A stretch of DNA of 64,000 bases from Lentisphaerota bacterium (GCA_052033915.1 JBPOJF010000003.1:58695-122694); one strand, 5' to 3'; numbered from the stretch's first letter, positions 6,796 through 35,155 are shown. Made by a program: numbers and translations. Notes: generated by a model not told the origin, from the letters alone.

Positions 6796-6843
6796 TCCAA
6801 AGTCCAAGGTGCTTGCCGGAATCACTTTGGACCTTGGACTTGA
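6796..6843. repeat. Imperfect hairpin built from GTCCAAAG/GTCCAAGG units (repeat family A) at the mutS 3' end
   Basis: AGTCCAAAGTCCAAGGTG ... CACTTTGGACCTTGGACT inverted arms; same unit family recurs at 18538, 22241, 26357 and 35088. Confidence 0.55.
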
Positions 6844-6883
6844 ACCGATCTCCTATAGGATACATGAAACAGACTGGTGATTC

Positions 6884-8260
6884 ATGAGAAAAGAGAGAGA
6901 TTCGCTCGGCGTCAAAGCGGTTCCGGACGAAGCGTATTACGGCGTCCACACGGCCCGGTCGCTGGATAATTTCAATGCGGCCGGAGAGCCGGTGCCGGTC
7001 GAGATCATCCACGGCATGGTGAAGCTGAAATGGGCCTGCGCGCGCGCCAACCAGCGGTTGGGCCTGCTCTCCGCGAAGAAGGCGGACGCCATCGTCCGCG
7101 CGTGTCGCCGTGTGCTCGCGGGGAAGGCGGCCGATCAGTTTGCGGTGGACGTTTTTCAGGCCGGGTCCGGCACGTCGTCGAACATGAATGTGAACGAGGT
7201 GATCGCGAACCTCGCATGCGTCGCCCTGGGAGGAAAGCGCGGCGACCGGAAGCGGGTTCACCCGAACGACGATGTGAACAAGGGCGAGTCCACGAACAAC
7301 GTGTTCCCGTCGGCGATCCGCATCGCCTCGGTGGAACTCTCGGAAGGGCTTCTGAAAAGCGTCGAAGCGCTGATCCGGCAGTTGAAGCGAAAAGCGGCGG
7401 CGTTTTCCGACGTCGTCAAGAGCGGCCGCACGCATTTGCAGGATGCGGTGCCGGTGACTCTGGGGCAGGAATTCAACGCGTACGCGCGGGCGTTGGAGAA
7501 GGGGGTCGCGCGGGTGGAACAGGCGGTCGGAAAGCTCCTGGAACTGGGTGTGGGCGGTAACGCGATCGGCACGGGCGTGAATACGAAGAAGGCGTTCCGC
7601 CGGTTGATTCTTCAGGAACTCAACCGGGCGACGGGCAGGAAATATCGCGCGGCGAAGGACGGGCTTGAAGCGACGCAGTTCATGACGGACCTGGCTGAAA
7701 TGTCGTCGGCTCTCAAGCTCCTCGCGCTGGATATCCTGAAGATCTGCAACGATCTTCGTCTCCTGAGTTCCGGGCCGAATACGGGCCTCGGCGAGATCGT
7801 TCTGCCGCCGGTCGAGCCGGGTTCGTCCATCATGCCGGGCAAGATCAATCCGAGCATTTGCGAAGCGATGAACATGGCCTGCATCCAGGTCGTCGGTCTG
7901 GACCACGCTGTGGCCGCGGCGTGCGGAGCGGGTCAGCTTGAGCTGAACACGCACATGCCTCTGATCGGCTGCAACCTGGTGAAGTCGTTCCGCATCCTGG
8001 ACCGCGGCTGCGCGATGCTGGCGCGGAAATGCATTTCCGGGATCCGGGCAAACCGGGAAGTCTGCCGGCTGAACTTCGAACGAAGCGCGGGGCTGGCCAC
8101 CGTGCTCAACCCCCGGTTGGGCTATGACCGCGTTGCCGAACTGGTGCAGGAGTCCCTGCGCACGAAGAAGGATCTGCGCCGGCTCGTTCTCGAAAAGAAG
8201 ATCTTGAGCGAGGGCGAACTGAATCGAATTCTCGCGCGTTCAACCGGGCCGAACCTGTAG
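6884..8260 (+). CDS. fumC: Class II fumarate hydratase / aspartate ammonia-lyase family enzyme (closer to FumC by motif)
   Basis: GSGTSSNMNVNEV, KRVHPNDDVNKGESTNNVFP, GRTHLQDAVPVTLGQEF and GSSIMPGKINPSICEAMNMAC signatures of the aspartase/fumarase superfamily; assignment between fumC and aspA not resolved. Confidence 0.8.
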   Translation: MRKERDSLGVKAVPDEAYYGVHTARSLDNFNAAGEPVPVEIIHGMVKLKWACARANQRLGLLSAKKADAIVRACRRVLAGKAADQFAVDVFQAGSGTSSNMNVNEVIANLACVALGGKRGDRKRVHPNDDVNKGESTNNVFPSAIRIASVELSEGLLKSVEALIRQLKRKAAAFSDVVKSGRTHLQDAVPVTLGQEFNAYARALEKGVARVEQAVGKLLELGVGGNAIGTGVNTKKAFRRLILQELNRATGRKYRAAKDGLEATQFMTDLAEMSSALKLLALDILKICNDLRLLSSGPNTGLGEIVLPPVEPGSSIMPGKINPSICEAMNMACIQVVGLDHAVAAACGAGQLELNTHMPLIGCNLVKSFRILDRGCAMLARKCISGIRANREVCRLNFERSAGLATVLNPRLGYDRVAELVQESLRTKKDLRRLVLEKKILSEGELNRILARSTGPNL

Positions 8261-8279
8261 CAAGACGCCGCGGTTCGGG

Positions 8280-8795
8280 CTAGAAGAATATCCTCATGCC
8301 CAGTTCAAGACGGATATCCGTGCTTTCCGTCTCGCCGTGTTTCGCCGGGTAGATGTCGTCCGTGGCGACTTCGCCGACCAGCGCCAGGGAAAGGGCGGCG
8401 TATTCGGTGATGAGGAACTTGGCGCCGCCCTCGATCCCGATGAGGCCCGCGGTGTGGTTCTCGTCCGCGGCCTTGTTGTCCGCGGTGGCGATCTGGAGAT
8501 GCCCGCCGGCGAACGGAACCACCGAGTAGCCGATGTCGAAGTTGTACTCCGCCTTCGGCCCCAGCGCCCAGGTCTCGATGGCGTCGTCGTCGCGATACGC
8601 GCCGGTCAGCCCGATCTCAAGATAGTCCATGAAGAAGTAGCCGTAGAAGAGGTTGAGGTTGAAAAGCGCTCCGTTCGACGTCTCGAAATCCATCAGACCC
8701 GAAACGCTGAGTTCGCTGGTTCCCTTTTCAAGGAACATGGCGTGCGCGGTGGCCGTGAGGACTGCGATCAATACGACAGCGAGAATCTTTTTCAT
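8280..8795 (-). CDS. Outer-membrane beta-barrel protein (OmpW/OmpA-like small porin family)
   Basis: Signal peptide MKKILAVVLIAVLTATAHA, alternating amphipathic strands, C-terminal ...LELGMRIFF aromatic terminus; AGGAG RBS before ATG 8795. Confidence 0.65.
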   Translation of the reverse strand: MKKILAVVLIAVLTATAHAMFLEKGTSELSVSGLMDFETSNGALFNLNLFYGYFFMDYLEIGLTGAYRDDDAIETWALGPKAEYNFDIGYSVVPFAGGHLQIATADNKAADENHTAGLIGIEGGAKFLITEYAALSLALVGEVATDDIYPAKHGETESTDIRLELGMRIFF

Positions 8796-8898
8796 GGACG
8801 CGTCTCCTGTATAGGGATTTTGAATTGCCCGACCGTATGACATCGACGCCGTGGCGGCAAGTGTTTTCAGTTATGTTCGGACGCGGGTCGCGGCCTTT

Positions 8899-9876: not shown

Positions 9877-9958
9877 GGCTTGAAGGTAGGGGCAGCGGGG
9901 GGCGGTTCCAAGTGAAAAAGAATGGCGGCGGCGCGGCGCGCCGGTATACTGCCCGCTC

Positions 9959-12702: not shown

Positions 12703-12752
12703 TCGTCATTCGTCATTGATTAGTCATTCGTCATTGGGCATTAGTCATTGAG
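12703..12752. repeat. Tandem GTCATTC/GTCATTG heptamer array (repeat family B)
   Basis: TCGTCATTCGTCATTGATTAGTCATTCGTCATTGGGCATTAGTCATTG between yjbQ stop and the TPR gene start; an inverted copy set lies at 28194-28273. Confidence 0.55.
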
Positions 12753-18381: not shown

Positions 18382-18383
18382 GG

Positions 18384-18432: not shown

Positions 18433-18579
18433 CATACACGGCCCGCGACCGGATTGAAAGGTTGGAGAGGGCCGCGGCGGCGGTTGTGTCCGCGATGGAC
18501 TTGGGACGTGCCTCCGCCGAGGTGCCGGCGGACACGCTTTGGACTTGGGACTTTGGACTTTTTCTTCTACGATCCTGCC

Positions 18580-22318: not shown

Positions 22319-22328
22319 AACCCGGTTC

Positions 22329-22850
22329 ATGAGCGATCACGATTCAGTCAAAAGAACCCGCGAACAGGCCCAGACCTTCCTGGCGGACGTGCTGCGCCTC
22401 ATGGGGTTTGAAGCCAGGGTCGAGGCGTTCGATCTGCCGGACAACGAGGTTCTTCTGCACATTGAATCGGCCGACGCCGGCCGCCTGATCGGCCGCGACG
22501 CCCAGGGCCTCGCAGCCCTCCAACTGGTGCTGAACCGCATGGTCTGGCGGTCTCCTGAACGCACCGGCCGCTTCATCGTGGACGTCGAACGCTACCGCGA
22601 GCGCAGGAAGGATCGCCTGTTGAACATGGCGCTCAATGCCGCGGAACAAGTCCGGCAGACGGGACATGCCGTGAAACTGGCCCCGATGAACGCCGCGGAC
22701 CGCCGGATTATCCATCATGCGATCATGAATCAAAAGGATCTGCGGACGTGGTCCGAAGTCCTCGATGGCGAACATGAGAAATGCGTTGTTGTGGACAAGG
22801 CCGAGCCGTCTGTCGGCAGCGACTCGCCGCCCGGCAACCACATCCAGTGA
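22329..22850 (+). CDS. jag: Jag/KhpB RNA-binding protein (Jag_N, KH, R3H)
   Basis: Conserved position downstream of yidC; ...LHIESADAGRLIGRDAQGLAALQLVLNRMV... (KH) and ...LAPMNAADRRIIHHAIMNQKDLRTWSE (R3H). Confidence 0.85.
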   Translation: MSDHDSVKRTREQAQTFLADVLRLMGFEARVEAFDLPDNEVLLHIESADAGRLIGRDAQGLAALQLVLNRMVWRSPERTGRFIVDVERYRERRKDRLLNMALNAAEQVRQTGHAVKLAPMNAADRRIIHHAIMNQKDLRTWSEVLDGEHEKCVVVDKAEPSVGSDSPPGNHIQ

Positions 22851-22896
22851 ACAGCAGACGGTGAGGCGCCAGGAAAGGCTTACCCATCTCCCCTCC

Positions 22897-24564
22897 ATGC
22901 AACGCAACCTCAAACGACTTTCCGCGGAACCCTACGACCTCCTGATCATCGGCGGCGGTATCAACGGCCTCGCCGCGGCCTGGGACGCGTCGCTGCGCGG
23001 CTTGAAGACGGCGCTGGTCGAGAAGAGAGACTTTGGCGCGGAAACATCGTCCGCCACCTTGAAGATTGTCCACGGTGGCCTGCGGTATCTCCAACATCTC
23101 GATTTCGTCCGCATGCGCGAATCGATCCGCGAGCGCTCCACGATGCTTCGCATCGCGCCGCACCTGGTGGAGCCGTTCCCGTTTCTCGTCCCGACCTACG
23201 GGCACTTCATGCAGGGCAAGGAAGCGATGACCGCCGCGGTGCTCATGAATGAGATCATGAGTTTCGACCGCAACCGTCGCCTGCCGGACCCGGCGCGCCG
23301 GATTCCCTCGGGCCGGATCATCTCGAAGAAGGAATGTCTCGAACTCGCGCCGGGCGTCGAGCCGAAGGGTCTGACCGGCGGCATGATTTTCTATGACGCG
23401 CAGATGTACAACTCCGAGCGGCTCACGCTTTGTTTCGCGTTGTCGGCCGCCGCGAAGGGCGCGGACCTGGCCAACTACGTCGAGGTGACGCGCGTCATCC
23501 GCGAGAACAACCGGGTCGTGGGCGCGAAAGCAAAAGACCTTCTGACGGGGTCCGATTTTGAGATTCGGGCGGCGGTCACGGCCAATATGACCGGACCCTG
23601 GTCGGACATAGTCGTGGACCTGATCGACGCGCCGCAGCCCGACCGCCGGGTCGTGCGCTCCAAGGGGATTCAGATCGTCACGCCGAGACTGACCGACAAG
23701 GTCGCGCTTGCCGTGCCCAGCGCGTACGAGGACCCCGATGCGATCCTCAGCCGCGGCGCGCGGAATTTCTTCATCACCCCGTGGCGCGGGGTCTCGCTCG
23801 TCGGCACGACAGACACCGTGTACGAGGGCGACCCGGACCATTTCCGGATCACGGCGAAGGATGTGGCCGATTACGTCGAGGAGATCAACCAGTCCCTGCC
23901 GTCCGCGAAGCTGAAGCCCGAGCAGATCCCGTTCGCCTTCGGCGGCTTGAGGCCGATCACCGAGAAGAACATCGATGCGGGCTCGAAAGTCGCGCGAAAG
24001 TACGAGGTCAATGACCACGCTGTTGACCTGGGCATCGAGGGGTTCTTCTCGATCGTCGGCGTGAAATACACGACCTGCCGTTTCCTCGCGGAGAAGGTGG
24101 TCGATCTTGCGTTTGCGAAACTCGGCCGCCCGTCGCCGAAGGCCGTGACCGACAGCACGCCGCTGGCCGGCGGTGCGATCGAACGCTTTGACGAGTTCAT
24201 GAGCCGCTCGATTGCCGAACGGCCTGCCGGGTTCGACGAACCCATGATGCGCCATCTCGTGCGCAGCTACGGGTCGGACGTTGCCGTCATCACGGACCTG
24301 GCGAAGCAGGACCCGAAGCTTGGGGAGAGGATTCCCGGTTCCGGGGAAGTCGCGAGGGCGGAGGTCGTTCATGCGGTCAGAAACGAATGCGCGCTCCGGC
24401 TGGAAGACGTGGTTCTGCGGCGGACGGATCTCGGCACGCTGGGCCATCCGGGACGGCCCGCGCTGGACGCGTGCGCGGACATCATGGCCGGCGAACTGGG
24501 CTGGGATGCCGGGCGCCGACAGCGCGAGATGGACGCCGTGGAAGATCGATACAGATTCGTTTAA
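22897..24564 (+). CDS. glpD: FAD-dependent glycerol-3-phosphate dehydrogenase
   Basis: YDLLIIGGGINGLAAAWDASLRGLKTALVEKRDFGAETSSATLKIVHGGLRYL FAD-binding N-terminus and GlpD-like C-terminal domain; ATG 22897 gives a start clear of jag. Confidence 0.9.
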   Translation: MQRNLKRLSAEPYDLLIIGGGINGLAAAWDASLRGLKTALVEKRDFGAETSSATLKIVHGGLRYLQHLDFVRMRESIRERSTMLRIAPHLVEPFPFLVPTYGHFMQGKEAMTAAVLMNEIMSFDRNRRLPDPARRIPSGRIISKKECLELAPGVEPKGLTGGMIFYDAQMYNSERLTLCFALSAAAKGADLANYVEVTRVIRENNRVVGAKAKDLLTGSDFEIRAAVTANMTGPWSDIVVDLIDAPQPDRRVVRSKGIQIVTPRLTDKVALAVPSAYEDPDAILSRGARNFFITPWRGVSLVGTTDTVYEGDPDHFRITAKDVADYVEEINQSLPSAKLKPEQIPFAFGGLRPITEKNIDAGSKVARKYEVNDHAVDLGIEGFFSIVGVKYTTCRFLAEKVVDLAFAKLGRPSPKAVTDSTPLAGGAIERFDEFMSRSIAERPAGFDEPMMRHLVRSYGSDVAVITDLAKQDPKLGERIPGSGEVARAEVVHAVRNECALRLEDVVLRRTDLGTLGHPGRPALDACADIMAGELGWDAGRRQREMDAVEDRYRFV

Positions 24565-24624
24565 CGCAATAACGCAAAGAGAAGAAATAGGCGCAAAGCA
24601 TCAATTTTCCGCCTTTGCGTTAAG
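24561..24624. terminator. AT-rich inverted-repeat region between convergent glpD and the ABC permease (possible bidirectional terminator)
   Basis: TTAACGCAATAACGCAAAG ... GGCGCAAAGC ... CTTTGCGTTAAG; three direct and one inverted CGCAAAG copies; low-GC island. Confidence 0.35.
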
Positions 24625-24639
24625 AAACGACCCCTTCCT

Positions 24640-26346
24640 TTACACGCGGAACAGGGCTCCAAGCCGTCTGCCGAGGATGAGGCTGGCGCCGACAATGGTG
24701 ACGGTCAGGAAGCTCATGGCCCACACGCCCATCGCGGAGGCAAGGTATTTCCCGGTGCCAATCAGTTGGAACAGTTCGTAGATGGTTTTTGTGATCGGGT
24801 AGAAGTCCATGCGCTGGGCGAGCATCAGGCTGTCGGACACTTCGAGCATGCTGAACGCAAAGGCGAGCAGGGCGCCCGCGATCAGGTTTGCGAGGATGAG
24901 GGGCAGGGTAATGCGGCGAAGCGTGGTGAAAGGCCCGGCCCCGAGGTTGGCTGCCGACTCCTCGAACGTGACGGAGGTCTGCTGGAGCCCGGCCGCGGCG
25001 GAGCGGACCATGTACGGGAGCCGCCGCACGGCGTAGGCGATCACGAGGAACAGGGTCGGGTTGACGCGCACGTCGAACACCGATTGCCGGAAGGGGCTCT
25101 CCTTGACCCAGTCCGAGTTGCTGAACTGGGAACTGATCGCCAGGTAGCCGAACGCCATGACGAGTCCGGGGACGGCCAGCGGCAGCATCGCCAGGGCGTC
25201 CAGCACGCCCCGCGCGCGGATTTCGGAGCGCACGACGACAAACGCGATGGCGATCCCGATCACGATGTTCAGCAGAACGGCGAGCGAGGAATAGAGGAGG
25301 CTGTTCCGGATGCTGCTCACCGTCATGCTGTGGCCGAGCGCCTCGACGTAGTTCGCCGGCGAGTATTTCGCGGGCAGGACGGACTGGTACCAGCTTCCGG
25401 GCTCGCTGAAGCTCGTCAGGATGACCCCGGCATGCGGCAGGAGCGCCACGCCGATGACGGCGACGAACGGCAGCAGGACGAGAAGAGCCTTGATGCCGCG
25501 GACCGGCGTGGACGCCGCGGCCGTCGCGGCCTTGCTCTGCATTGCGAACGCCTTCCGGCCGAACAGCAGCTTGCCGGCGGCGTAGAGCAGGATGCTTACG
25601 GAAAGCATCACGGAGACGAGCGCGTACGGAAACGGATTGGAGCCGATCTCCTTCAGCGCGTCGAACACCTGCACCGGCGCGCAGCGCATGTAGTTCATGA
25701 TCAGCGGCGTGCCGAGCTCGGTGAAGCTCCAGATGAACACGATCGTGCCGCCGGCGAACAGTCCCGGCATGGTCAGCGGCAGGGTGATCCGGAAGAACCG
25801 CTTGAGCGGGGGACAGCCGAGGTTGGCGGCGGATTCCTCCATCGCGGGATCGATGTTCGCCAGCGCCGCCGCCACGTTGAGATACAGGATCGGGTAGAGC
25901 GACAGCGCCTGGAGGAGGATCACGCCGAAGTACCGCCCGCGCCCGAGCCAGTCGATCGGTCCGAGCCCGAGCAGGGCGTTCAGCGCGCCGTACTGGCCGA
26001 GAATTTGCTGGAAGCCGATTGCGCCGACGAAGGGCGGCAGGATCATCGGCACGAGCACGAGCCCGGTGACCCATTTCTTGCCGGGGAAGTCGAAGCGGTT
26101 CGAGAGCCAGGCGAGCGGGACGGAAATCAGCGTGACCAGCGCGGTGGCGCCGACGGCAATCATCAGACTGTTGAGCAGTCCCTCGGCGTAGATTGGGTTC
26201 TGGAAAACGCCCGCGAGGTACTTGAGCGTGAATTGGCCGCCGACGAAGAATCCGCCGCGGATGACTATCCAGAGCGGCGCGAGCAGGGCGACGCCGAGGA
26301 TCGTCAGCGTGGTCCAGAAGATGAGATGTGCCAATCCGCGTTGCAT
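24640..26346 (-). CDS. ABC transporter permease with two fused transmembrane domains (FbpB/ThiP-type)
   Basis: Two EAA-loop-bearing permease halves (..EESAANLGCPPLKRFFRITLPL.. and ..EESAANLGAGPFTTLRRITLPL..); ATG at 26346, ORF-track start is TTG. Confidence 0.85.
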   Translation of the reverse strand: MQRGLAHLIFWTTLTILGVALLAPLWIVIRGGFFVGGQFTLKYLAGVFQNPIYAEGLLNSLMIAVGATALVTLISVPLAWLSNRFDFPGKKWVTGLVLVPMILPPFVGAIGFQQILGQYGALNALLGLGPIDWLGRGRYFGVILLQALSLYPILYLNVAAALANIDPAMEESAANLGCPPLKRFFRITLPLTMPGLFAGGTIVFIWSFTELGTPLIMNYMRCAPVQVFDALKEIGSNPFPYALVSVMLSVSILLYAAGKLLFGRKAFAMQSKAATAAASTPVRGIKALLVLLPFVAVIGVALLPHAGVILTSFSEPGSWYQSVLPAKYSPANYVEALGHSMTVSSIRNSLLYSSLAVLLNIVIGIAIAFVVVRSEIRARGVLDALAMLPLAVPGLVMAFGYLAISSQFSNSDWVKESPFRQSVFDVRVNPTLFLVIAYAVRRLPYMVRSAAAGLQQTSVTFEESAANLGAGPFTTLRRITLPLILANLIAGALLAFAFSMLEVSDSLMLAQRMDFYPITKTIYELFQLIGTGKYLASAMGVWAMSFLTVTIVGASLILGRRLGALFRV

Positions 26347-26356
26347 GGGGTTCAAA

Positions 26357-26433
26357 CGTCCAAGGTCTAAAGTCCAAAGCTAGAGGATTCCTCCGACCTT
26401 CGACTTTGGACTCTAGACTTTAGATTTTAGACT
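26357..26433. repeat. Repeat family A hairpin element inside the ABC operon
   Basis: ACGTCCAAGGTCTAAAGTCCAAAGCTAGAGGATTCCTCCGACCTTCGACTTTGGACTCTAGACTTTAGATTTTAGAC between permease start and substrate-binding-protein stop. Confidence 0.6.
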
Positions 26434-26443
26434 ACTCCCGTCT

Positions 26444-28183
26444 TCATCTTTCCGCCATTTGCTTAGCTCTTCTGTAGTTTTCCCTGTAGAACGCCGTCCA
26501 CTCCCTCAGGTAATCCAGCCGATCATACTTTTTTGAAAACGTCACGGCGGATTGCCATGTCAGCGGTTCCGGCTTGTCGGGCAGGCGGCTGAACAGTTCC
26601 ATCGCCGCGGCCTGCTTTTCCGGCCCGCCGTTCCGGATGATCGCGTTCCACGCGTCGTGCAGTTCATCCACGGAATCGAGGCACATCGCGCGGACGAGGT
26701 CGCGCTGGATGTTGAAGTGCCGGGCAGTCCACCGGCTCCGGTACGTGAAGTTGGTCGCGAGGGAGTAGGGGTTGACGGCGGGATCGGCGAGGTTGTCCAC
26801 GGAGTACTTGGCGTGTTCGCGCCACCCGAATGTCCCCATCCCACACTTTATAAAGTGTGGGATACCGGTGTCCGGTGTCGGGGGATAGAAGTTGCGTTGG
26901 ATCGGGAGGCGGCGCAGGGCGAACTTGTGCGGGCCGCCGGGTGTTCCGGGCCGGTAGGCCCACAGTTTCTGGCCGTCCTCGCTCAGCAGGTACCGGATGA
27001 AACGGGTCGCAGTTTCGCGGTTCTCCGCGCCGCGCAGGAGGCCGACGGGGTCGCAACTGACGCTCGACCCGCCCACGGGCGTGACGTAGATCATGCGCTC
27101 GGAACCATCCGGCGCGCGGCTGCACTGAGCCTGGTACCGGCCATAGAAATCGATCGCCAGTCCGATCGCCGCATCGCCCATGCTCACGTCGATGGTCACC
27201 TTGCCGGCGGCGTCGGTGAAATACCGCGCGTTCGCGCCGATGCGCTGGATCAGCCGGATGCCGTTTCCCCAACCGCGCTCCACGGCGGCCTGGTATTCCG
27301 ACGGAACGTCCTCCGGCCGTTCGCCCGGCGGAAGATGTGCGGCCTGAAAGGAGGCTTCGAACGTCTCGATCTGCGCGTCGTTGAAGCCCGCGCTGATGAC
27401 CGACTGATGGCATTTCTGCTGGACGATCATCTCGAAAGCTTTTGCGATGCTTCCGCTCTTGGTCGGGTCGCACGCGGCGACCTGCCGGAAGTACGCCGGG
27501 TCGGCGAGATCGTCCCATTGCGTCGGCGGCTTGCCGACTTTCAGGTCTCGGAGCCGGTCCAGGTTGTAACAGATCCCGAACGTGCTGAGGACGTTGCCGA
27601 ACATCCGCGATGTGCGCCACGTCTCGCCGCTCATCTTCTCGGGGATGTCGGTGACTTCCGCCGGCGTCTTGCCCGCCGGCCAGGGGTCAACAATCAGGCC
27701 CTGCCGGTACGCGTCACTGTGGTCGTACTCGCCGCCGCCCCAGAGCAGATCCACCTTGCTCGTGAATTCCCGGGGATCGTCGGTATTCCGGAAGATTTCG
27801 TGGATTTCCTTCAGTTCGGGCGCCGTGCCGGGATCGAGCGTGCGCGCCACGACCGCGTCGCCGGCCCCCGCAGGCCACGGCTTGCCTTTGCCCATCCACC
27901 AGCCGCGCGCCGCGGCGACGTATTCGGAACCCAGGTAGCGCATGATTTCTGATGTCCCGCCCAGCGCGCGCCAGTCCACCTTCGCAGGCCGGCCGAAGTT
28001 TCTGGAGTGCCATTCCGAAAAACCGCGCGCAAACTCATATCGGATCGCCTCGTTCATCGGCGTGATGATGACGACCACGGGATCGCCCGGCCGCCACGCT
28101 AAATCCTCCTGAGGCCGGCGGAAGAGAAAGGGGAGGGCGATGATGAGGGCGGCGAGGAGAAGGATGATAGTGTTTCGAATCAT
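26444..28183 (-). CDS. ABC transporter extracytoplasmic substrate-binding protein (large, ~580 aa; N-terminal signal anchor)
   Basis: MIRNTIILLLAALIIALPFLF signal anchor; operon context with PotA-like ATPase and fused permease; family-B repeat between it and the ATPase supports start at 28183. Confidence 0.7.
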   Translation of the reverse strand: MIRNTIILLLAALIIALPFLFRRPQEDLAWRPGDPVVVIITPMNEAIRYEFARGFSEWHSRNFGRPAKVDWRALGGTSEIMRYLGSEYVAAARGWWMGKGKPWPAGAGDAVVARTLDPGTAPELKEIHEIFRNTDDPREFTSKVDLLWGGGEYDHSDAYRQGLIVDPWPAGKTPAEVTDIPEKMSGETWRTSRMFGNVLSTFGICYNLDRLRDLKVGKPPTQWDDLADPAYFRQVAACDPTKSGSIAKAFEMIVQQKCHQSVISAGFNDAQIETFEASFQAAHLPPGERPEDVPSEYQAAVERGWGNGIRLIQRIGANARYFTDAAGKVTIDVSMGDAAIGLAIDFYGRYQAQCSRAPDGSERMIYVTPVGGSSVSCDPVGLLRGAENRETATRFIRYLLSEDGQKLWAYRPGTPGGPHKFALRRLPIQRNFYPPTPDTGIPHFIKCGMGTFGWREHAKYSVDNLADPAVNPYSLATNFTYRSRWTARHFNIQRDLVRAMCLDSVDELHDAWNAIIRNGGPEKQAAAMELFSRLPDKPEPLTWQSAVTFSKKYDRLDYLREWTAFYRENYRRAKQMAER

Positions 28184-28193
28184 AATCAGCCAA

Positions 28194-28273
28194 ATAACGA
28201 ATGACGAATAACCAATGACGGATTGGGTCGCACTGGGCATTTAGTCGTTGGACATTCATTCGTCATTTCGTCA
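28194..28273. repeat. Repeat family B (GTCATTC heptamers) in inverted arrangement, spanning the ATPase stop codon
   Basis: AACGAATGACGAATAACCAATGACG ... CATTCATTCGTCATTTCGTCA. Confidence 0.55.
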
Positions 28274-29345
28274 GCACGACCACGTCCTCCGGCTCAAACC
28301 ATGTCTTTGTCTTTTCCACGTGCTCGTCGCGCGCGACGAATTTCGGGTGAAGCTCGAACACCTTGAGTTCAACGCCGCCCTGGGCGATCGTCACCTGGTG
28401 CTGGGCGACTTCGCCGAGGTACATCGTGTCGTGGATGGCGCAGTCGAATACGTTGGCCGCGCCGGCCTGCGGCCGGCCCACGCGGATGGTCTCCGGGCGC
28501 AGGGAGAGGGTCACGGGGTCGCCGGTGCGGACAGGTTGCGGCGGTTGGGCCGTGCTGACGATGTTGCCGATCGGCGTGCCGATTTCCAGGTGACCGTCGG
28601 AGGCTTGCCGTACGGCGCCTTCGATGAAGTTCGTTTCGCCGATGAAGTTGGCGACGAAGCGGCTGTTGGGACGCAGGTACACTTCCTGGGGCTTGCCGCA
28701 TTGCCGGATCAGGCCCTTGTCGAGAATCGCGAGGCGGTCGGCGATGGAGAGCGATTCCTTCTGGTCGTGCGTGACGTAGATCGCGGTGAGCCCCGCCTGC
28801 TTGCAGATGCGGCGGATTTCCAAGCGCATTTCGAGGCGCAATTTCGCGTCGAGGTTCGAAAGCGGCTCGTCGAGCAGGAGGCACTGCGGCCTGATCACCA
28901 GCGCGCGCGCAAGAGCCACGCGCTGCTGCTGGCCGCCCGACAGCTCGTTCGGCTTGCAGTCTGCGCGGTCCGCCATCTTCACCATGTCGAGGGCGTCCGC
29001 GACACGCCGCCGACGCTCGCCGGGGGAGACCTTCCGAAGCTCCAGGCCGAACGCGACGTTCTCGCTTACGGTCATGTGCGGCCACAGGGCGTAGCTCTGG
29101 AATACCATGCCGGTGTCGCGCTCGTGGGGCGGCAGGTTCGAAATGTCCGCACCGCCGATCCGGATCGAGCCGCTGTCCGGGATGCAGAAGCCCGCGACGC
29201 ATCGGAGCAGCGTCGTCTTGCCGCAGCCGCTCGGGCCGAGCAGGAAAAAGAGTTCGCCGGGTTCGATCAGGAGGCTTACGTCGTCCAGCGCGCGGGTGGA
29301 ACCGAACGCCTTGTTCAGTTTATTCATGTGGACCGAAACGGCCAT
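28263..29345 (-). CDS. ABC transporter ATP-binding protein (PotA/FbpC-like with C-terminal TOBE-like domain)
   Basis: GPSGCGKTT Walker A, LSGGQQQRVALARAL signature, LLLDEPLSNLD Walker B, H-loop YVTHD. Confidence 0.9.
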   Translation of the reverse strand: MAVSVHMNKLNKAFGSTRALDDVSLLIEPGELFFLLGPSGCGKTTLLRCVAGFCIPDSGSIRIGGADISNLPPHERDTGMVFQSYALWPHMTVSENVAFGLELRKVSPGERRRRVADALDMVKMADRADCKPNELSGGQQQRVALARALVIRPQCLLLDEPLSNLDAKLRLEMRLEIRRICKQAGLTAIYVTHDQKESLSIADRLAILDKGLIRQCGKPQEVYLRPNSRFVANFIGETNFIEGAVRQASDGHLEIGTPIGNIVSTAQPPQPVRTGDPVTLSLRPETIRVGRPQAGAANVFDCAIHDTMYLGEVAQHQVTIAQGGVELKVFELHPKFVARDEHVEKTKTWFEPEDVVVLTK

Positions 29346-29438
29346 GAGTGGAAGTAGTGTATCGGGCCGGCAGGGTATGGAAAGAGGCTTTTTTCAGCAT
29401 CGACTCGCTTTTCGGAATGGATGATGAAATTGCTTTCA

Positions 29439-29930
29439 TCAGGCGGAATCTGTTCTTCGCTCGAACCGGATCGGTCCGTCGGCGCCTTTCTTGAGGAACA
29501 GTTGGGCGCTGAGCCACATGGACCACGCGCAGAGCCCGGCCAGCAGAATCCACGCCCGCCATCGCTCGGAGGCCTTTTCCACGAGATGGAACACCTCGCC
29601 GATTCTCCAGGCCACTCCGAAAGGAATGGCGATGCCCCAGAACAGGCTGCCGCTGCGGCCCATGTCGTGGAGGCGTCGTACGATTTGAAGGATGACCCAG
29701 AAAACGATTCCGGCGAATAGGAGCGAGAACAGGATCGACAGCGTCCGGAAGGACTCCGCCCGGCAGATTTTCTGGATGTACAGGATGGCCGCAAATCCCG
29801 CTGCCGCCAGGGCCATGCGCAGCGCGAAGGCGGCGCGACCGATTCGCGCCTCGAACTTGGTTTCGATCCAGATGCAGAAATCCTTGAGCTTCAGTTGGAG
29901 GGGCGAGGCCTGGATATCCGAGGGTGTCAC
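29439..29930 (-). CDS. DUF805-family inner membrane protein
   Basis: RRLHDMGRSGSLFWG motif typical of DUF805 (YhaH-like); GTG start overlapping upstream stop (GTGA). Confidence 0.65.
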   Translation of the reverse strand: MTPSDIQASPLQLKLKDFCIWIETKFEARIGRAAFALRMALAAAGFAAILYIQKICRAESFRTLSILFSLLFAGIVFWVILQIVRRLHDMGRSGSLFWGIAIPFGVAWRIGEVFHLVEKASERWRAWILLAGLCAWSMWLSAQLFLKKGADGPIRFERRTDSA

Positions 29931-31450
29931 GGCCGATCTCCTTTCCCGGCGGGGACCTGCTCGGCGGGGGCTTGGCGCCGGTCATGGATTGCTTTCTGTT
30001 TCCGATACTGCGGGATGCCGAAGATGACGGCGGCGATCACGATCAGGGCCATGAAACCGATCACGATGCGGCTGGCCGTCTGTCGGCCGTTCTGGCGGAA
30101 GAGCAGGGAGAGCATCGCGCACCCGCCGAAGAAGGCGAAGCACGTCATCACGCCGAACCAGAACGTGTAGTTTCCGTCCGAAACCGACAACAGGCGGCCG
30201 GTGATGAAGAGGCCGATCGCCGCGCCGTAGTACTGGAAGGAGTCAATGACGCCGGAGGCAAAGCCGGCCATCTTTTTTCCGCCGATATCCATGGGCGCGG
30301 CCGCGCCCACGATGGAGTGCGTGCTGTTGGCCGTGATGGCGATGAGCACGAGAAACAGACAGCCCAGCAGAACGCCGCCGGCGGTCGGGCCGATGAGGTG
30401 GAGCGCCATCACGGTGGCCGCGGTGGCGATGACGCAGGCTTCGCCGTAGTACAGGATCATAGCGACGGGATACCGGTGGCCGCGAAAAAATCGGTCGGAC
30501 ACCCAGCCCGACAAGACGGAGCCGGCCACGGCGACGATCGGGATGAGGGCCAGGGTGCCGATGGCGATCTCCGGCATATTGGTCTTCATGTTGAAGCCGA
30601 GGACGTCCTCGAAGTAGAGCGGGGCAAGCTGGTCCGACGCGTGCCGGACGGCGCCGGTGCAGCCGTAGGCCACCGCGTAGAACCAGACCAGCGGATTGGA
30701 AAATACGAATTTGAACGCGTCCTTCACGCGCACGGTGGTGCCGGCGGAGTTGTCCACATCGTCGTGGATGGTTCCGGGGTAGCCGGCCTCGTCGGGCGAT
30801 TGCGCGGATACGAAGTAGAACCAGAGCGCGACGAGGGCGACGAAGATCGGTGGGATACAGAAGAGCATGCGCCACTGGCCCGGCCCGACGACAAAGGCGA
30901 GGAAGGTGAAGCCGTTCAGGATGACGGGTGCGAGCAGGCTGATCATCGTCTGTCCCGACTGGATCATGAAGCCGAAGATGCCGGCGAACACGCCGCGCTC
31001 CTCCCGGTTGAACCACGCGGCGTTGATCTTGACCATGCCGGGCGTGCCGGCGGCTTGGATGTAACCGTTGAGCATCCACAGCGCCGCGAAGGCGGCGAAG
31101 TTCGCCGTGAGGGAGGAAAAGCCGATGATCAGGTTGATCGTGATGGTTCCGACGGCCCCGATAAGCATCGAGCATCGGCCGCCGATCCGGTCACAGATGA
31201 GGCCGTTGATGAGTTGCCCGGTCCCGTAGGCGAGGGAGAACCATGCGGCCAGGTCGGCGATTTGCTGCGCGCCGAAGCCGAACTCTTGGCGCATGCCCGG
31301 ACCGGCGAAGCGGAAATTGTAGCGGCACATGTAGAACATGGCGTACATGAGCCCCACGGTGAACCAGTTGATGCCGCGGCGGGCTCGGAATCCGGGAGGG
31401 TGCCTGCGCGATTCCTTCCATCCTGTCTTGGACTTTACGGCCATGGTCAT
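29927..31450 (-). CDS. glpT: MFS organophosphate:phosphate antiporter (GlpT/UhpT-like glycerol-3-phosphate transporter)
   Basis: 12-TM MFS; ...NWFTVGLMYAMFYMCRYNF..., ...VSDRFFRGHRY... resemble GlpT; AAAGGAA RBS before ATG 31450. Confidence 0.8.
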   Translation of the reverse strand: MTMAVKSKTGWKESRRHPPGFRARRGINWFTVGLMYAMFYMCRYNFRFAGPGMRQEFGFGAQQIADLAAWFSLAYGTGQLINGLICDRIGGRCSMLIGAVGTITINLIIGFSSLTANFAAFAALWMLNGYIQAAGTPGMVKINAAWFNREERGVFAGIFGFMIQSGQTMISLLAPVILNGFTFLAFVVGPGQWRMLFCIPPIFVALVALWFYFVSAQSPDEAGYPGTIHDDVDNSAGTTVRVKDAFKFVFSNPLVWFYAVAYGCTGAVRHASDQLAPLYFEDVLGFNMKTNMPEIAIGTLALIPIVAVAGSVLSGWVSDRFFRGHRYPVAMILYYGEACVIATAATVMALHLIGPTAGGVLLGCLFLVLIAITANSTHSIVGAAAPMDIGGKKMAGFASGVIDSFQYYGAAIGLFITGRLLSVSDGNYTFWFGVMTCFAFFGGCAMLSLLFRQNGRQTASRIVIGFMALIVIAAVIFGIPQYRKQKAIHDRRQAPAEQVPAGKGDRP

Positions 31451-31535
31451 CGGTAGGTTCCTTTGGGTCAGGCGCCGCGCCGGTGCGGTGAAAGCCCGCG
31501 CACCAGAATACACGTTTGCGTCCTGCTCGTGGAAC

Positions 31536-32525
31536 TTATTTCGCGCCCGCGGGCCGCTCGAAATACACCAGCTTCTTCTTGGGCGCGAGGGTGATCTTGA
31601 ATTTCGACAGAAGCTGGCGGCCGATGCGCGGTTGCGACAGCCGCAGGTTGAGGGTTCGGCTGTCCACCACCGACACGTTTCTGAAGACCACGTTGCCCAC
31701 GCTGACCTGCTTCAATTCGTCAGAAGGCGGGTTGGTCATGGCGATTTCAAATTCGCCGGCCGTATCCAGGATGAACACTTTCCTTTCTCCGTCGATCGCG
31801 CCTTCCACGGCGAATGCGCCGCCGACCTGCTTCAGCTTCATCGCGTCGATCAGGTTCACTTCCTTCGGCGCGTAGTCGATCGTGGCGGAGAGCATGACGG
31901 CGTAATTTGGATAATCGATCTGCGCGAAGGCAAAGGCCTTGAGGATGTCGCAGCCCAGGATCGCCTCCGGCGCCGGGTTCTCCAGGTTCCGCGCGAGGGG
32001 GCCGAGCGGACCGGTCGCCGCCCGGAAATGGAACAGCGCGTTTTCGACATGGAGATGGTCGAATCGGAGTTTCGTCATGATGCAGGCATAGCCGGGAATA
32101 TCCTCGTTGACGTTGGCCGGCGTGTAGTCGTAGGCGGGAGGCCCCAGCGGGATGGTCCGGGTCCGCAGGAACGTGGGAAAATCAAGCCAACTTCGACCGG
32201 CGGTCGTATCGACGAGGACGGAGAAGGTTTCCTCCCGCCCGTTGTCCGCCACGATCACAGGCGCCGTGGACAGACCCTTCTTGGCAAAGTCGCGGCTCGC
32301 GACATGCTCGGGATGCAGTCGGTTTGCGCCCGAGAACCGCACGCTGTTCTTGCCCGACGGGTATGCCGTGATCCAGAAACGGCGCGCGTCCCGGGCCTTC
32401 GAAAAGACGTGGCGAAGCTCCGTCTCCGTGAGAGGCCTGGTTGTCTGGGGTGGTGTCGTGGCGCACCCGCCTGCCAGCGCCGCCAGACCGATCCCGACGC
32501 AGAGAATACGAACGAATTTCAACAT
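31536..32525 (-). CDS. Lipoprotein, possible two-lobed retropepsin-like aspartic protease
   Basis: Lipobox LAALAGGC; two VxxDTxAG-like segments (VLVDTTAGRSW and VFILDTAGEFEI) ~150 aa apart. Confidence 0.5.
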   Translation of the reverse strand: MLKFVRILCVGIGLAALAGGCATTPPQTTRPLTETELRHVFSKARDARRFWITAYPSGKNSVRFSGANRLHPEHVASRDFAKKGLSTAPVIVADNGREETFSVLVDTTAGRSWLDFPTFLRTRTIPLGPPAYDYTPANVNEDIPGYACIMTKLRFDHLHVENALFHFRAATGPLGPLARNLENPAPEAILGCDILKAFAFAQIDYPNYAVMLSATIDYAPKEVNLIDAMKLKQVGGAFAVEGAIDGERKVFILDTAGEFEIAMTNPPSDELKQVSVGNVVFRNVSVVDSRTLNLRLSQPRIGRQLLSKFKITLAPKKKLVYFERPAGAK

Positions 32526-32665
32526 GGGCGTACGTTGACATGCGGCTTGGGAGGAAACAAGCCGTATTCAGAGGTCAGCCGGACAAGACCCTTGCGCGGC
32601 CTGGCCCGGGGTCGACCCATCCGCGTGGATACGCACACGGGGGACAAGTCCGGTATGATTCATGC

Positions 32666-33673
32666 CTATTCTCTTTCGGCTTTTGGATCCCGCCCCATCA
32701 GGTCGTGAACGGCTGTGCGTGGATCCTTGCCTTCGTGGATCACGGCGTACACTTCGTCCGTGATCGGAACCGGCACGCCGTATTTTTGCGCGAGCGCCCG
32801 GGCGGTCGCGCAGGTCCACACGCCCTCGGATACTTGCTCCATGGATTGAAGAATGTGGTTGATCGACTCGCCGCGGCCCAGCCGCTCGCCGACCGAGTGG
32901 TTGCGGCTGAGCCGGCTCGCGCAGGTCACGACGAGGTCGCCCATACCGCTCAGGCCGGCGAACGTCGCGGGGTTCGCGCCGAGCGCGCAGCCCAGCCGTG
33001 CGATCTCCGCCAACCCGCGTGTGATCAGCGCCGCCTTCGTGTTGTCGCCGAAGCGGATGCCGTCGCAGACGCCCGCCGCGATCGCGATGACGTTTTTCAG
33101 CGCGCCGCCGATCTCCACGCCGATCACGTCATCGGACGTGTACACCCGGAACGCCGGGTTCATGAGCAGGCTCTGGAAGCCCTGGGCGATCCCGGCATCG
33201 GCGCAGGCGACGGTGACCGCGGTCGGTATGCCGCGCGCCGTCTCCGCCGCGAGGCTCGGGCCGGAGAGCGCCGCGACCGGGCGTTTCAGCAGTTCCTCCG
33301 CGACCTCGGTCATCCGCTTCCCGGTTTTCTCGTCCAGGCCCTTGGTCACGCTCAGGACCGGCGCGGAGGGGGGGATCAGCGCGGCGAAGGGTTTCAGCAC
33401 GGGTCGGAAATAACGGGAGGGCACGGCGAGGATCACGACATCCGTCCCGGCGACCGCCTCGGCCTGATCGGCCGTCCACAGAATATCCGGCGGCAGCTTG
33501 ATGCCCGGCAGGAATTTCTCGTTCTTGTGGCGGCGTCGGATTTCCGCGATGTAGTCCTCGAACGGGCCCCACACGCGCACCGCGTGGCCGTTATTGTGCA
33601 GAACGACCGCGAGCGCCGTTCCCCAGCCGCCGTCTCCGATAATCGAAACCTTTCTGGGAGTTCCAAGTTCCAT
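32666..33673 (-). CDS. gpsA: NAD(P)H-dependent glycerol-3-phosphate dehydrogenase
   Basis: VSIIGDGGWGTALAVVL Rossmann motif; ...GALKNVIAIAAGVCDG... GpsA signature. Confidence 0.95.
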   Translation of the reverse strand: MELGTPRKVSIIGDGGWGTALAVVLHNNGHAVRVWGPFEDYIAEIRRRHKNEKFLPGIKLPPDILWTADQAEAVAGTDVVILAVPSRYFRPVLKPFAALIPPSAPVLSVTKGLDEKTGKRMTEVAEELLKRPVAALSGPSLAAETARGIPTAVTVACADAGIAQGFQSLLMNPAFRVYTSDDVIGVEIGGALKNVIAIAAGVCDGIRFGDNTKAALITRGLAEIARLGCALGANPATFAGLSGMGDLVVTCASRLSRNHSVGERLGRGESINHILQSMEQVSEGVWTCATARALAQKYGVPVPITDEVYAVIHEGKDPRTAVHDLMGRDPKAERE

Positions 33674-33683
33674 GTTTCAAGCT

Positions 33684-34340
33684 TCAAGTTGCGAGTTGCG
33701 AGTTTCCGGTTTGAGTCTTCTTCCTGAAGCTGAACCGGTGCTCGCTTCCATCGATCAGTCTTTGAATATTCGACTTATGACGCCAAACCGCGAGCAGTCC
33801 GAGATTTGTCAGTACGATCGGCAGCAAGCGGCCCTCCTCCGAATAGAGGGACCACGAGACCACCGGCACCACGATGGCCGCGCCGATGGAGGCGACCGAG
33901 ACGTAGCGGGTGGCGAGGAGCAGGACGAACCAGCTCAGCAGTCCCCAGGCCACGGCCTGCGGCGCAATTCCGAGGAGCACGCCCGCGCTGGTCGCGATGC
34001 CCTTGCCGCCCTTGAACTTCAGGTACACCGGCCAGTTGTGGCCCGCGATCGCCGCGACGCCGCACAGCAGGCCGATTTCCGGACCTTGGACCATTCCGGT
34101 GATCCATTTTCCAAGGATTGGAAAAAAGTACGCGGGCACAAACCCTTTCACGGCGTCGCCGACGAACGTCAGGATGCCCAGCGGCTTGCTGACGGATCGG
34201 AAGACGTTCGTTGCGCCGATGTTCCCGCTGCCGACGGTGCGGATATCGACGCCTTTCATCCGTGAAAGGAGCAGGCCGATCGGAATCGCGCCCAGAAGAT
34301 AGGCGGCGACGATCTGCAGAATAGGGAAAATGATAGACAT
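33684..34340 (-). CDS. plsY: Glycerol-3-phosphate acyltransferase PlsY
   Basis: MSIIFPILQIVAAYLLGAIPIG..GSGNIGATNVFR..KGGKGIATSAG; last codons come from a CAAGTTGCGAG tandem repeat; contains an internal family-C palindrome. Confidence 0.95.
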   Translation of the reverse strand: MSIIFPILQIVAAYLLGAIPIGLLLSRMKGVDIRTVGSGNIGATNVFRSVSKPLGILTFVGDAVKGFVPAYFFPILGKWITGMVQGPEIGLLCGVAAIAGHNWPVYLKFKGGKGIATSAGVLLGIAPQAVAWGLLSWFVLLLATRYVSVASIGAAIVVPVVSWSLYSEEGRLLPIVLTNLGLLAVWRHKSNIQRLIDGSEHRFSFRKKTQTGNSQLAT

Positions 34341-34366
34341 GGTCGATGGCTTCCGTTTCTCGTGTC

Positions 34367-35044
34367 CTACCGCACGCCTTCCTGCTCCACCCATCGCACG
34401 GCCTCGCGGAACACCTGCGCGGCATCTTCGCAGCGCAGCTTCCGTTTGATGTGCGCCCGGTGGACTTCCACGGTTCGGTCGCTCAGCCCGAGTTTGTCCG
34501 CGATCTTCCGAGTGGACAGACCCTGGCCGATTCCCTGGAAGACTTCCATTTCGCGTTCCGTCAACGCCTCGACGCCGAACTCCGGCGCTTCCTTTTTCTC
34601 GCCCTTGATGAAATTCTTCAGCATGCGCGTCGCCGTCTCGCCGCTCACGAAAATCTCGCCGCGCAGGACCGTCCGCAAGGCGTCCACGATCACCTCGTCC
34701 GCCTTTTCCTTCATGACATAGCCTTGCGCGCCGGCGCGCAGGGCCTTCTCGGCGTAGACGGATTCATCGTGCATGGACAGCACGAGATACTTTACGGCGG
34801 GGTACTTCTCGCGCGCGTCGCGGATCAGCTCCAGCCCGCTCTTGTCCTTGAGCGTGATATCCACGATGGCCACGTCGGGCGTTTGCCTCGAGAGCGCTTC
34901 AAAAGCTTCGTCATAGCTAGCCGCCTCGCCGATGATGCTGAATCCCTTCTCGCGGGCGAGGAGGCTGGTCAGCCCATGCCGAACGACGGAATGATCATCC
35001 ACGATCAGGATGGTATAGGCGGATTCTTTGTCTTTTTCTTTCAC
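34367..35044 (-). CDS. LuxR/NarL-family response regulator (REC + LuxR HTH)
   Basis: ILIVDDHSVVRHG receiver; C-terminal LTEREMEVFQGIGQGLSTRKIADKLGLSDRTVEVHRAHIKRKL; GTG start with AGGGAG RBS. Confidence 0.9.
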   Translation of the reverse strand: MKEKDKESAYTILIVDDHSVVRHGLTSLLAREKGFSIIGEAASYDEAFEALSRQTPDVAIVDITLKDKSGLELIRDAREKYPAVKYLVLSMHDESVYAEKALRAGAQGYVMKEKADEVIVDALRTVLRGEIFVSGETATRMLKNFIKGEKKEAPEFGVEALTEREMEVFQGIGQGLSTRKIADKLGLSDRTVEVHRAHIKRKLRCEDAAQVFREAVRWVEQEGVR

Positions 35045-35087
35045 GACTCCCTACTGATTAGCAGAGATTGACCCGGCAGGGAAGCTT

Positions 35088-35155
35088 GAGTCCAAGGTCT
35101 AAAGTCCAATGTCCAAAATCGTCTGCCTGGGACCTTAGACTTTGGACGTTGGACT
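35088..35155. repeat. Repeat family A hairpin element between the sensor kinase and its response regulator
   Basis: GAGTCCAAGGTCTAAAGTCCAATGTCCAAAATCGTCTGCCTGGGACCTTAGACTTTGGACGTTGGACTC. Confidence 0.6.

Follow-up and report, generated by a model that had tools for sequence, protein, structure and literature searches.

To our knowledge, no role has been assigned to the heptanucleotide repeats of bacteria and no reason has been given for their period of seven. In Xanthomonas campestris and X. axonopodis, the repeat GGGAATC is present in hundreds of dispersed copies, most often as 4 tandem units, with 70-75 convergent pairs per genome (Rehm et al. 2015, PMC4692102). These repeats lie 28 nt from the upstream open reading frame (ORF) versus 160 nt from the downstream ORF, few are placed between divergent genes, related species carry them at the same junctions with variation in length and sequence, and no function was found for them (PMC4692102). 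Geobacter metallireducens contains five tandem MTYCTGA repeats that occur in pairs, and four GGACCGG repeats (Aklujkar et al. 2009, PMC2700814). The subject of the present study is Family A, a set of hairpins made of inverted heptanucleotide repeats in a 64,000-nt stretch of DNA from a Lentisphaerota bacterium (GCA_052033915.1, JBPOJF010000003.1:58695-122694), which is called the window and in whose full length all coordinates are counted (1-based). Since its anatomy matches that of the Xanthomonas repeats and the Geobacter pairs, Family A is placed, as a sequence family not described before, in a known class of bacterial repeats whose function is unexplained. The evidence tips slightly toward dispersed elements that arose by replication slippage and that serve a REP-like RNA role at gene junctions, without being the relic of a transposon.

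Like the Xanthomonas repeats, Family A is composed of tandem heptamers with a mode of four, its convergent inverted pairs are able to form stem-loops, and it is intergenic, closer to the upstream 3' end and mostly found between genes of the same direction. In contrast, the Xanthomonas unit is unrelated, G-rich and able to form G-quadruplexes; GTCCAAR, the unit of Family A, has no runs of G, and a G-quadruplex reading was dropped on this ground. The Xanthomonas repeats were reported in one genus plus Nostoc, whereas Family A is found in at least five phyla, and neither an overlap with coding 3' ends nor a strict polarity of the arms is described there in these terms. The Geobacter pairs share with Family A the four to five tandem heptamers, the strand switch within a pair and the multiple copies per genome (PMC2700814). 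Their units are different, they are annotated as putative global-regulator sites or RNA elements, and their position relative to stop codons was not analysed; the GGACCGG family also differs in being often intragenic.

The cyanobacterial STRR heptamers, reportedly described by Mazel et al. in 1990, and the TAACTGA direct repeats are alike Family A as intergenic heptamer arrays in which one unit is spread patchily across phyla with no evident transfer mechanism. TAACTGA repeats are known from Beggiatoaceae, Cyanobacteria and Bacteroidetes, with 169 direct sets versus one inverted (MacGregor 2015, PMC4679880). Arrays of these kinds stand just upstream of starts lacking a Shine-Dalgarno sequence, as do one unpaired Family A array and other arrays of the window. 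Unlike Family A, they are nearly always direct repeats, they are placed 5' of starts and not behind stops, and stop codons occur within their units. REP/BIME elements offer a further comparison since they, too, are dispersed extragenic palindromes, most of them 3' of coding regions and within operons. The placement of one Family A hairpin (hairpin 3) has its classic parallel in the malE-malF REP, which Newbury et al. are said to have described in 1987 between the genes for a binding protein and a permease, and Liang, Rudd and Deutscher reportedly showed in 2015 that a REP lying no more than 15 nt from a stop codon affects the translation of the upstream gene. REP elements are 20-40 bp in length and carry a conserved tag at one end (GTAG or CGTC), and RAYT transposases are associated with them (PMC3733652). 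Family A lacks such a tag, has longer stems and arms built of a variable number of tandem repeats, and no transposase was found in its neighbourhood. The description "REP-like", proposed in a first-pass annotation of the window, is therefore apt for position only and does not extend to membership among the REP elements.

The repeat unit of Family A is a heptamer, GTCCAAR in the 5' arm and YTTGGAC in the 3' arm, with the variant 5'-arm units GTCTAAR, GTCTCAA and GTCTGAG. The first-pass annotation, made from the sequence alone, had reported a hairpin family of 8-mer units at five sites. All five elements are present to within 1-3 nt, but the unit is not an octamer since Tandem Repeats Finder returned a period of 7 for every arm; the 8-mers are the heptamer plus one base. 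Under a strict criterion, 7 is the sole period that is enriched in the window. As an observation, Family A is real and highly non-random. Two adjacent units, searched as GTCCAARGTCYAAR with up to 2 mismatches, matched the window 23 times where 1.25 matches were expected (0 of 100 shuffles scored that high), and the two-arm pattern GTCCAARGTCYAAR-N10-40-YTTRGACYTTGGAC matched 3 times versus 0 expected. The elements of the window span 48-81 nt. When folded as RNA, the four two-armed elements were all strong hairpins, as anticipated, with energies of -31.8 to -43.3 kcal/mol and z-scores of -3.6 to -4.9 relative to shuffled sequences.

The fifth site, which had been described as a single-arm version with direct repeats, is indeed an unstructured array (fold z -0.7). 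It ends 19 nt 5' of a methyltransferase ATG at 18580, and approximately 23 aligned bases (CTTTGGACTTGGGACTTTGGACT) are identical in the corresponding locus of a sister metagenome-assembled genome (MAG; locus L206), where the upstream flank has diverged. The 64 kb of the window contain 5 copies of Family A. A search of the window against Rfam identified only a tRNA above the gathering score and no family relevant to Family A; at a permissive threshold, the best matches of hairpin 2 were plant and animal miRNA precursors far under the cut-offs. A full-text search of a library of papers for the dimer of the GTCCAAR unit found none that contains it.

The two-arm pattern was also scanned in a collection of one genome per species, and the stretches recovered (at least 118) are the source of the cross-genome counts. 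The hairpin is present at no fewer than 118 loci in about 70 MAGs, whose depositor labels cover at least 5 phyla. Among the matches listed, about 40 of these MAGs are labelled Acidobacteriota (Pyrinomonadaceae, Blastocatellia, Chloracidobacterium, Thermoanaerobaculia), about 15 Planctomycetota, 3 Verrucomicrobiota, 2 Lentisphaerae, 2 Chloroflexota and 2 Actinomycetota; these counts are approximate because of apparent binning errors, a few of the contigs among the matches listed being probably mis-binned. With the same hairpin in MAGs labelled Acidobacteriota, Planctomycetota, Verrucomicrobiota, Lentisphaerae, Chloroflexota and others, the earlier impression that the family is lineage-specific is refuted. 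In one instance of binning, a contig placed in Oscillospiraceae (L092) matches, in both hairpin and flanks, a contig in a Verrucomicrobiota MAG of the same study (L103), and matches labelled Klebsiella pneumoniae and Flavobacterium (L049, L058) also look mis-binned. In the sister MAG, GCA_964421535.1, the hairpin is found on no fewer than 4 contigs (L076, L090, L103, L206), of which L076 is 87% identical to the window over 4.8 kb. Homologues of the Jag protein encoded in the window bear Verrucomicrobia labels, and the window is accordingly assigned to a Verrucomicrobium. From 2.9 million viral contigs of IMG/VR, 5 GTCCAAR hairpins were recovered on 4 contigs (L121-L125), two of them on one 34-kb contig. 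Spread by phages was considered and set aside, as five matches are too few to argue for it and the one locus that was inspected was uninformative.

The anatomy of the family was compiled from 134 copies, comprising 136 arm pairings, among the matches listed. Both arms most often have 4 units and next most often 5, over a range of 2-6, and the two arms differ by no more than 1 unit in 106 of the 136 pairings. The loops have a median length of 15 nt and are mutually unrelated; the stems contain a median of 26 Watson-Crick pairs. In 639 units that lie outside the search pattern (collected at up to 2 mismatches to the consensus), G1, T2 and C3 are about 97% invariant, with looser positions 4-7 (C 75%, A 84%, A 90%, R 87%). 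Element ends read A/GTCCAA...TTGGAC/T, where the slash marks the boundary. The A at -1 is found in 75% of the ends, as if the repeat continued, and TAA or TGA adjoins 18% of them. A conserved higher-order order of units, with GTCCAAT second from the outside, was found in a subset of about 10% only.

In the flank profile, the A at -1 and the adjacent stop codons were the only signals; neither target-site duplications nor a tag of the GTAG or CGTC type were seen. When hairpin-free or replaced junctions were compared with filled ones, the whole spacer was found to be replaced, again with no duplications. Clustering of the ORFs (without annotation) in 118 flanking regions identified no recurrent transposase-like ORF, only common housekeeping and regulator families. 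The suggestion that the elements are MITE-like does not survive the lack of duplications, fixed ends and a recurrent flanking transposase-like ORF, together with a variable number of units and, in the window, unrelated loops.

The arms have a strict polarity. The arrangement (GTCCAAR)n-loop-(YTTGGAC)n reads the same on either strand and is distinct from the reverse arrangement, (YTTGGAC)n-loop-(GTCCAAR)n. In 134 copies the GTCCAAR arm comes first and in 0 it comes second; among the 134 are 8 copies that could not have been selected by the search pattern. Inverted pairs of other heptamers in the same loci (n=20) tend the same way, with the purine-rich arm 5' in 17 versus 3 (p=0.003). A mutational process that is symmetric with respect to strand cannot give such handedness, which points to a process that runs 5' to 3', for instance transcription, fold-back synthesis or a function of the RNA.

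With respect to genes, which were called by a simple rule based on the longest ORF and G+C at third codon positions (GC3), 69 copies are between tandem neighbours, 19 between convergent neighbours and 9 between divergent neighbours. For tandem copies, the median distance from the upstream stop codon to the hairpin is 5 nt (10 nt or less in 42 of 69), and from the hairpin to the first possible downstream start it is 23 nt. The gap on the stop side is the smaller one in 50 of 66 tandem cases versus 16 (sign test, p=3e-5). Between convergent genes the gaps on both sides are mostly 0-7 nt, so that the hairpin is essentially the entire spacer; it is also the whole intercistronic spacer in 35 of the 69 tandem cases, only 4 of which have a Shine-Dalgarno-like motif. 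At least 5 T residues within the 8 nt after the stem were found for 16% of the 69 tandem copies, compared to 36% on the opposite strand, and a terminator scan of positions 20000-37000 called none of the three hairpins there. The view that the elements are a structured family and not simple terminators is upheld in that they are dispersed, structured, located at gene 3' ends and operon junctions, and seldom followed by a U-tract.

The features of the window are presented in Table 1; the genes named there by the first-pass annotation match the Pfam results. Each of the four hairpins is between same-strand neighbours that are 54-90 nt apart, and some overlap coding sequence, which the first-pass annotation had not noticed. 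The mutS stop codon (TAG, 6793-6795) shares its G with the first unit of hairpin 1. The yidC reading frame passes through the whole left arm of hairpin 2 and stops at a TGA in the fifth unit (22272-22274). On the other strand, the TAA of the histidine kinase gene (35135-35137) is in the third unit of an arm of hairpin 4, so that the SPTSKV carboxy terminus is encoded by the element, and the stop codon of the solute-binding-protein gene (26444-26446) is near hairpin 3. As a result, YidC and the histidine kinase, which are unrelated, both end in SKV read from the repeat (TCC AAA GTC followed by TGA or TAA; 22245-22274, 35135-35155). The stop codons are given by GTCT[AG]A[AG] variants, the consensus GTCCAAR unit being open in all six frames. 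On the downstream side, the ATG codons of jag (22329) and of the permease gene are 7 nt and 10 nt past their stems, and a direct reading of the sequence finds nothing resembling a Shine-Dalgarno motif before either. The lyase and response-regulator genes begin 41-45 nt past stems 1 and 4; read in the same way, the GTG of the regulator has a GGGAG about 8 nt 5' and the ATG of the lyase has only a weak GGTGA-like motif.

Table 1. Family A elements, their neighbouring genes and other features of the window, with the hexamer hairpins of a close relative. Coordinates refer to the window unless stated otherwise.
Feature	Coordinates	Strand	Composition or domains	Context	RNA fold (kcal/mol; z versus shuffles)
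mutS	4282-6795	+	Pfam MutS_I-V	5' neighbour of hairpin 1, presumably transcribed with it	
Hairpin 1	6795-6842		5' arm GTCCAAA GTCCAAG GTG; loop of about 11 nt; 3' arm CAC TTTGGAC CTTGGAC, then degenerate TTGAACC	between mutS and the lyase gene	-31.8; -4.3
Class II fumarase/aspartase-type lyase gene			Pfam Lyase_1/FumaraseC_C	downstream of hairpin 1	
Unpaired array	18537-18561	+	CTTTGGA, 3.6 units	U-rich arm type in sense orientation	
yidC	20478-22274	+	Pfam 60KD_IMP, YidC_periplas	3' end within hairpin 2	
Hairpin 2	22241-22321		five units (22241-22275), loop, four units (22294-22321)	between yidC and jag	-43.3; -4.9
jag/khpB-like gene	22329-22850	+	KH and R3H	3' of hairpin 2	
ABC permease gene	start ATG 26347-26345	-		gene order ABC ATPase, solute-binding protein, permease	
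Hairpin 3	26358-26433			between the solute-binding-protein and ABC permease genes, both on the - strand	-37.6; -3.6
ABC solute-binding-protein gene	26444-28240	-		hairpin 3 on its 3' side, other heptamer hairpin (28193-28270) on its 5' side	
Hairpin 4	35090-35155			between the CHASE histidine kinase and LuxR-type response regulator genes, both on the - strand	-33.7; -4.8
Histidine kinase gene	35135-36967	-	Pfam CHASE/HisKA_3	3' end within hairpin 4	
Other heptamer array	12703-12749				
Other heptamer array	28193-28270				
Other heptamer array	33659-33704				
Other heptamer array	43741-43774				
Other heptamer array	44759-44775				
Other heptamer array	59058-59135				
tRNA gene	62121-62193	-	Rfam, 71.1 bits	sole Rfam match of the window above the gathering score	
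Hexamer hairpins of L126	2895-3000, 4735-4850 (in L126)			orthologous to window 28185-28275 and 26345-26445	

The history of the element can be followed at two junctions. Between yidC and jag, the hairpin is kept in the window, the sister MAG (L206) and three further lineages (L209/L210, L211, L212), where Jag is 77-84% identical to that of the window, and in every lineage that bears the hairpin the YidC stop codon is in the fifth unit. It is absent from L207 and L208, where Jag is 68-70% identical and the spacer is 24 nt. For the five lineages, either arm has a mean pairwise identity of 0.83, with 0.86-0.90 for its outer units, and the loop has one of 0.72, compared to 0.61 at the third codon positions of jag; from this difference, even the non-coding arm is either constrained or continually homogenised. 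The orthologous copies fold strongly as well. More generally, GTCCAAR copies persist at orthologous junctions across lineages with coding DNA that is about 80% identical. In assemblies of the same species from other samples the hairpin sequence is identical, so this is not a phase-variable or hypermutable locus; the idea of a phase-variable contingency locus was dropped as there is no length polymorphism between samples.

At the ABC transporter operon, L076 has kept both the orthologous GTCCAAR hairpin and a neighbouring AATGACG-heptamer hairpin, with gains of units on both arms. The contig L126 is closer to the window than L076 (89-92% identical), yet it has hexamer-repeat hairpins at both ABC junctions, one of CGTCCT/GAGGAC (-60.7 kcal/mol) and one of GTAATC/GATTAC (-38 kcal/mol), in which the pyrimidine-rich arm is 5'. 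Both junction hairpins were replaced in one lineage. Distant relatives of the operon have unrelated strong hairpins at the same junctions and several have none. A hairpin therefore recurs at the ABC junctions in different sequence forms, although several relatives do without. Among these relatives, L130/L155, L148, L157 and L150 have huge unrelated palindromes at the ATPase-to-solute-binding-protein and solute-binding-protein-to-permease junctions, reaching -140 kcal/mol over 210-nt stretches; some are GC-rich and compound and one is made of AATCCGA/ATGACGA heptamers. In other relatives the genes overlap or abut and there is no hairpin.

A scheme that may account for these observations begins with replication slippage, which would add or remove whole units in the arms, while intrastrand (fold-back) templating or selection would keep the two arms alike. 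Since each unit can pair with every complementary one, units can be gained or lost and the stem still forms. If transcribed, the element would fold into a stem of 17-35 bp with no U-tract, at or a few nucleotides past the upstream stop codon, and such a stem could act in the manner of REP/BIME elements or of the RNase III sites of phages. It may form a barrier to 3' exonucleases or a point of processing and so protect the upstream cistron. Where a start codon follows 1-12 nt past the stem without a Shine-Dalgarno sequence, the stem might also serve as a gate, so that translation of the downstream gene would depend on ribosomes that melt the stem as they terminate upstream. The role as mRNA stabiliser or attenuator that was proposed in the first-pass annotation is suggested by the positions of the elements and by their evolution.

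Several observations weigh against this reading. Mismatches of the G.U and A.C type on the transcribed strand number 76 and 67 (p=0.5), which is no RNA-specific signature. RNAalifold analysis of the five yidC-jag hairpins produced 27 pairs of which 1 has a compensatory change, with a covariation term of +2.08; in these arms it is the sequence that is conserved and not just the pairing, which a model where any stem will do does not predict. Slippage alone explains neither the near-invariant G1-T2-C3 nor the recurrence of one unit in at least 5 phyla. A partner that recognises the sequence would more readily account for three observations, namely conservation without covariation, the near-invariant GTC and the presence of a single unit across many phyla. 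With regard to placement, start positions are approximate because of the simple rule used for gene calls, and 24 of the 134 copies are inside an ORF by these crude calls, many of them in over-extended 5' ends and some in what may be fused ORFs. The depletion from divergent spacers is also weak, with 9 copies versus 15.9 expected by number of spacers (not significant) or 21.1 by length (p=0.01).

A partner of this kind is the basis of an unlikely alternative, in which the arrays are sites for a sequence-specific single-strand-binding protein with a 7-nt footprint, likeliest one with a cold-shock domain, and work as a titrated switch that controls read-through or the translation of the downstream gene. 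Each unit of the U-rich 3' arm (GACUUUG in register) would bind one protein, in competition with hairpin formation. CspB of B. subtilis occupies one heptanucleotide per protein with the consensus GTCTTTG/T (PMC1904285). The period of Family A is exactly 7, like the CspB footprint, and the right-arm unit GACTTTG agrees with the consensus at 6/7 positions; the mismatch is an A at position 2, and position 4 is Y, whereas CspB prefers T at positions 2, 4 and 6 and C at 3. Conservation of sequence and not of pairing, a single unit in many phyla as expected for a conserved partner, and the fixed polarity with the pyrimidine-rich arm 3' are all in keeping with such a switch, as are the few clearly unpaired arrays near gene starts or between same-strand genes, which are of the U-rich type in sense orientation. 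A precedent exists since Csp and S1 proteins have been proposed for the TAACTGA heptamer repeats (PMC4679880). It is harder to reconcile with the many unrelated heptamer units that act alike in the same genomes and with the hexamer units at the same junctions of a close relative; given these and the mismatch at position 2, the resemblance to a cold-shock site is a lead only. A bolder extension, in which the GTCCAAR hairpins and the other polarity-fixed heptamer pairs are a widespread, hitherto overlooked class of protein-titrated RNA switches at stop codons in Acidobacteriota, the PVC superphylum and Chloroflexota, is a long shot. If it were true, the switches would set read-through, processing or translational coupling, and the unit shared across phyla would reflect convergence on, or transfer of, the optimal site of the partner.

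Slippage-prone heptamer microsatellites and inverted duplications might simply be tolerated in 3' spacers, which would make Family A a neutral by-product. Among the long simple-sequence repeats of many bacteria, heptamers outnumber all others, and they have been ascribed to polymerase slippage (Mrazek 2007, as cited in PMC4679880), the Xanthomonas repeats have no function found, and neither a G.U/A.C asymmetry nor covariation was detected. Neutrality is nonetheless decidedly unlikely: the non-coding arm is conserved above synonymous sites (0.83 vs 0.61), though homogenisation could mimic this, the polarity of GTCCAAR and the purine/pyrimidine polarity of the other families are beyond a strand-symmetric neutral process, and the elements abut stop codons tightly with no length polymorphism between samples. 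Non-autonomous mobile elements of the MITE or REPIN kind, with a transposase acting in trans and horizontal transfer between phyla, would account for what look like many copies per genome, for their patchy spread across phyla and for the replacement of both junction hairpins in a relative that is about 90% identical; in the MAG CSMAG_1437, a conserved loop between GTAGGG-headed REP-like elements looks copied as a unit, there only. With no target-site duplication, defined termini or GTAG/CGTC tag, a variable number of units, unrelated loops in the window, no recurring transposase-like ORF in 118 flanks, and copies kept at orthologous junctions across lineages that are about 80% identical, mobility of this kind is improbable. 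Ordinary Rho-independent terminators are very improbable. Their case is made by stable stems at gene 3' ends, including those between convergent genes, and by the UUU in each 3'-arm unit and AAA in the 5' arm, which is the polarity of a bidirectional terminator. It is countered by the scarcity of T-runs (16%, versus 36% on the opposite strand), by the failure of any of the three hairpins in the scanned stretch to be called, by tandem spacers of which half are so short that co-transcription is very probable, and by stems 2-3 times longer than those of typical terminators. A CRISPR reading was dropped as well since there are no spacers.

Slippage followed by an RNA role at gene junctions is the reading retained here, and with either that reading or a protein-titrated switch, Family A turns a vague class of repeats into one that is testable, as a 3'-end barrier or coupling gate or as a switch. 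To what is known of such repeats it adds a single unit found in poorly studied soil and freshwater phyla and an abutment to stop codons in which the element sometimes supplies the stop and the last residues of a protein, among them the essential YidC. It also adds a strict 5'-purine/3'-pyrimidine polarity and a conservation of the arms above the synonymous rate without covariation. The recurrence across phyla, the strict polarity and the abutment to stop codons with coding overlap set Family A above a routine repeat; the functional steps given above are proposals. For the annotation of MAGs there is a practical consequence, as the elements extend ORFs, create false starts (TTG and GTG in the arms) and can fuse neighbouring ORFs.

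Heptamer repeats account for many operon junctions of the window genome. The other arrays of Table 1 have the units TCGTCAT/TAGTCAT, AGTTCCA and AGTTGCG, AACAACG and ACAACTG, and GAAACTG, with one 14-mer pair; an AATGACG...CGTCATT heptamer hairpin of the window folds with -27.9 kcal/mol. By rough ORF calls, all of these arrays are in short same-strand spacers, several of them filling the gap from a stop codon to the ATG that follows. When GTCCAAR is set aside, the heptamer arrays fall into 87 unit classes, of which 40 contain TCA/TGA versus 21.7 expected from shuffled units; a shared GTC/GAC core, sought among other heptamer families, showed no enrichment (22 versus 18 expected). A stop codon within a heptamer gives a stop in all three frames within three units. 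The enrichment may also stem from arrays that were seeded on a gene's own stop codon, as in GACGAAATGA/CGAATGA at window position 28263.

In the Phycisphaerales MAG CSMAG_1437 (L004, L031, L036, L045, L046, L051, L078, L085, L111, L116, L119), the loop of the hairpin is conserved as GTCAGAAACCAACGAGAC. The hairpins of this MAG are nested between inverted REP-like palindromes of the GTAGGGTGGGTGGAACC type, which are GTAGGG-headed, as if a REPIN-like composite had been copied. Within the window, positions 36001-40000 have a G+C content of 0.554 compared to 0.62-0.64 elsewhere, and few long ORFs were called at 36967-38362; this may be an acquired or non-coding segment.

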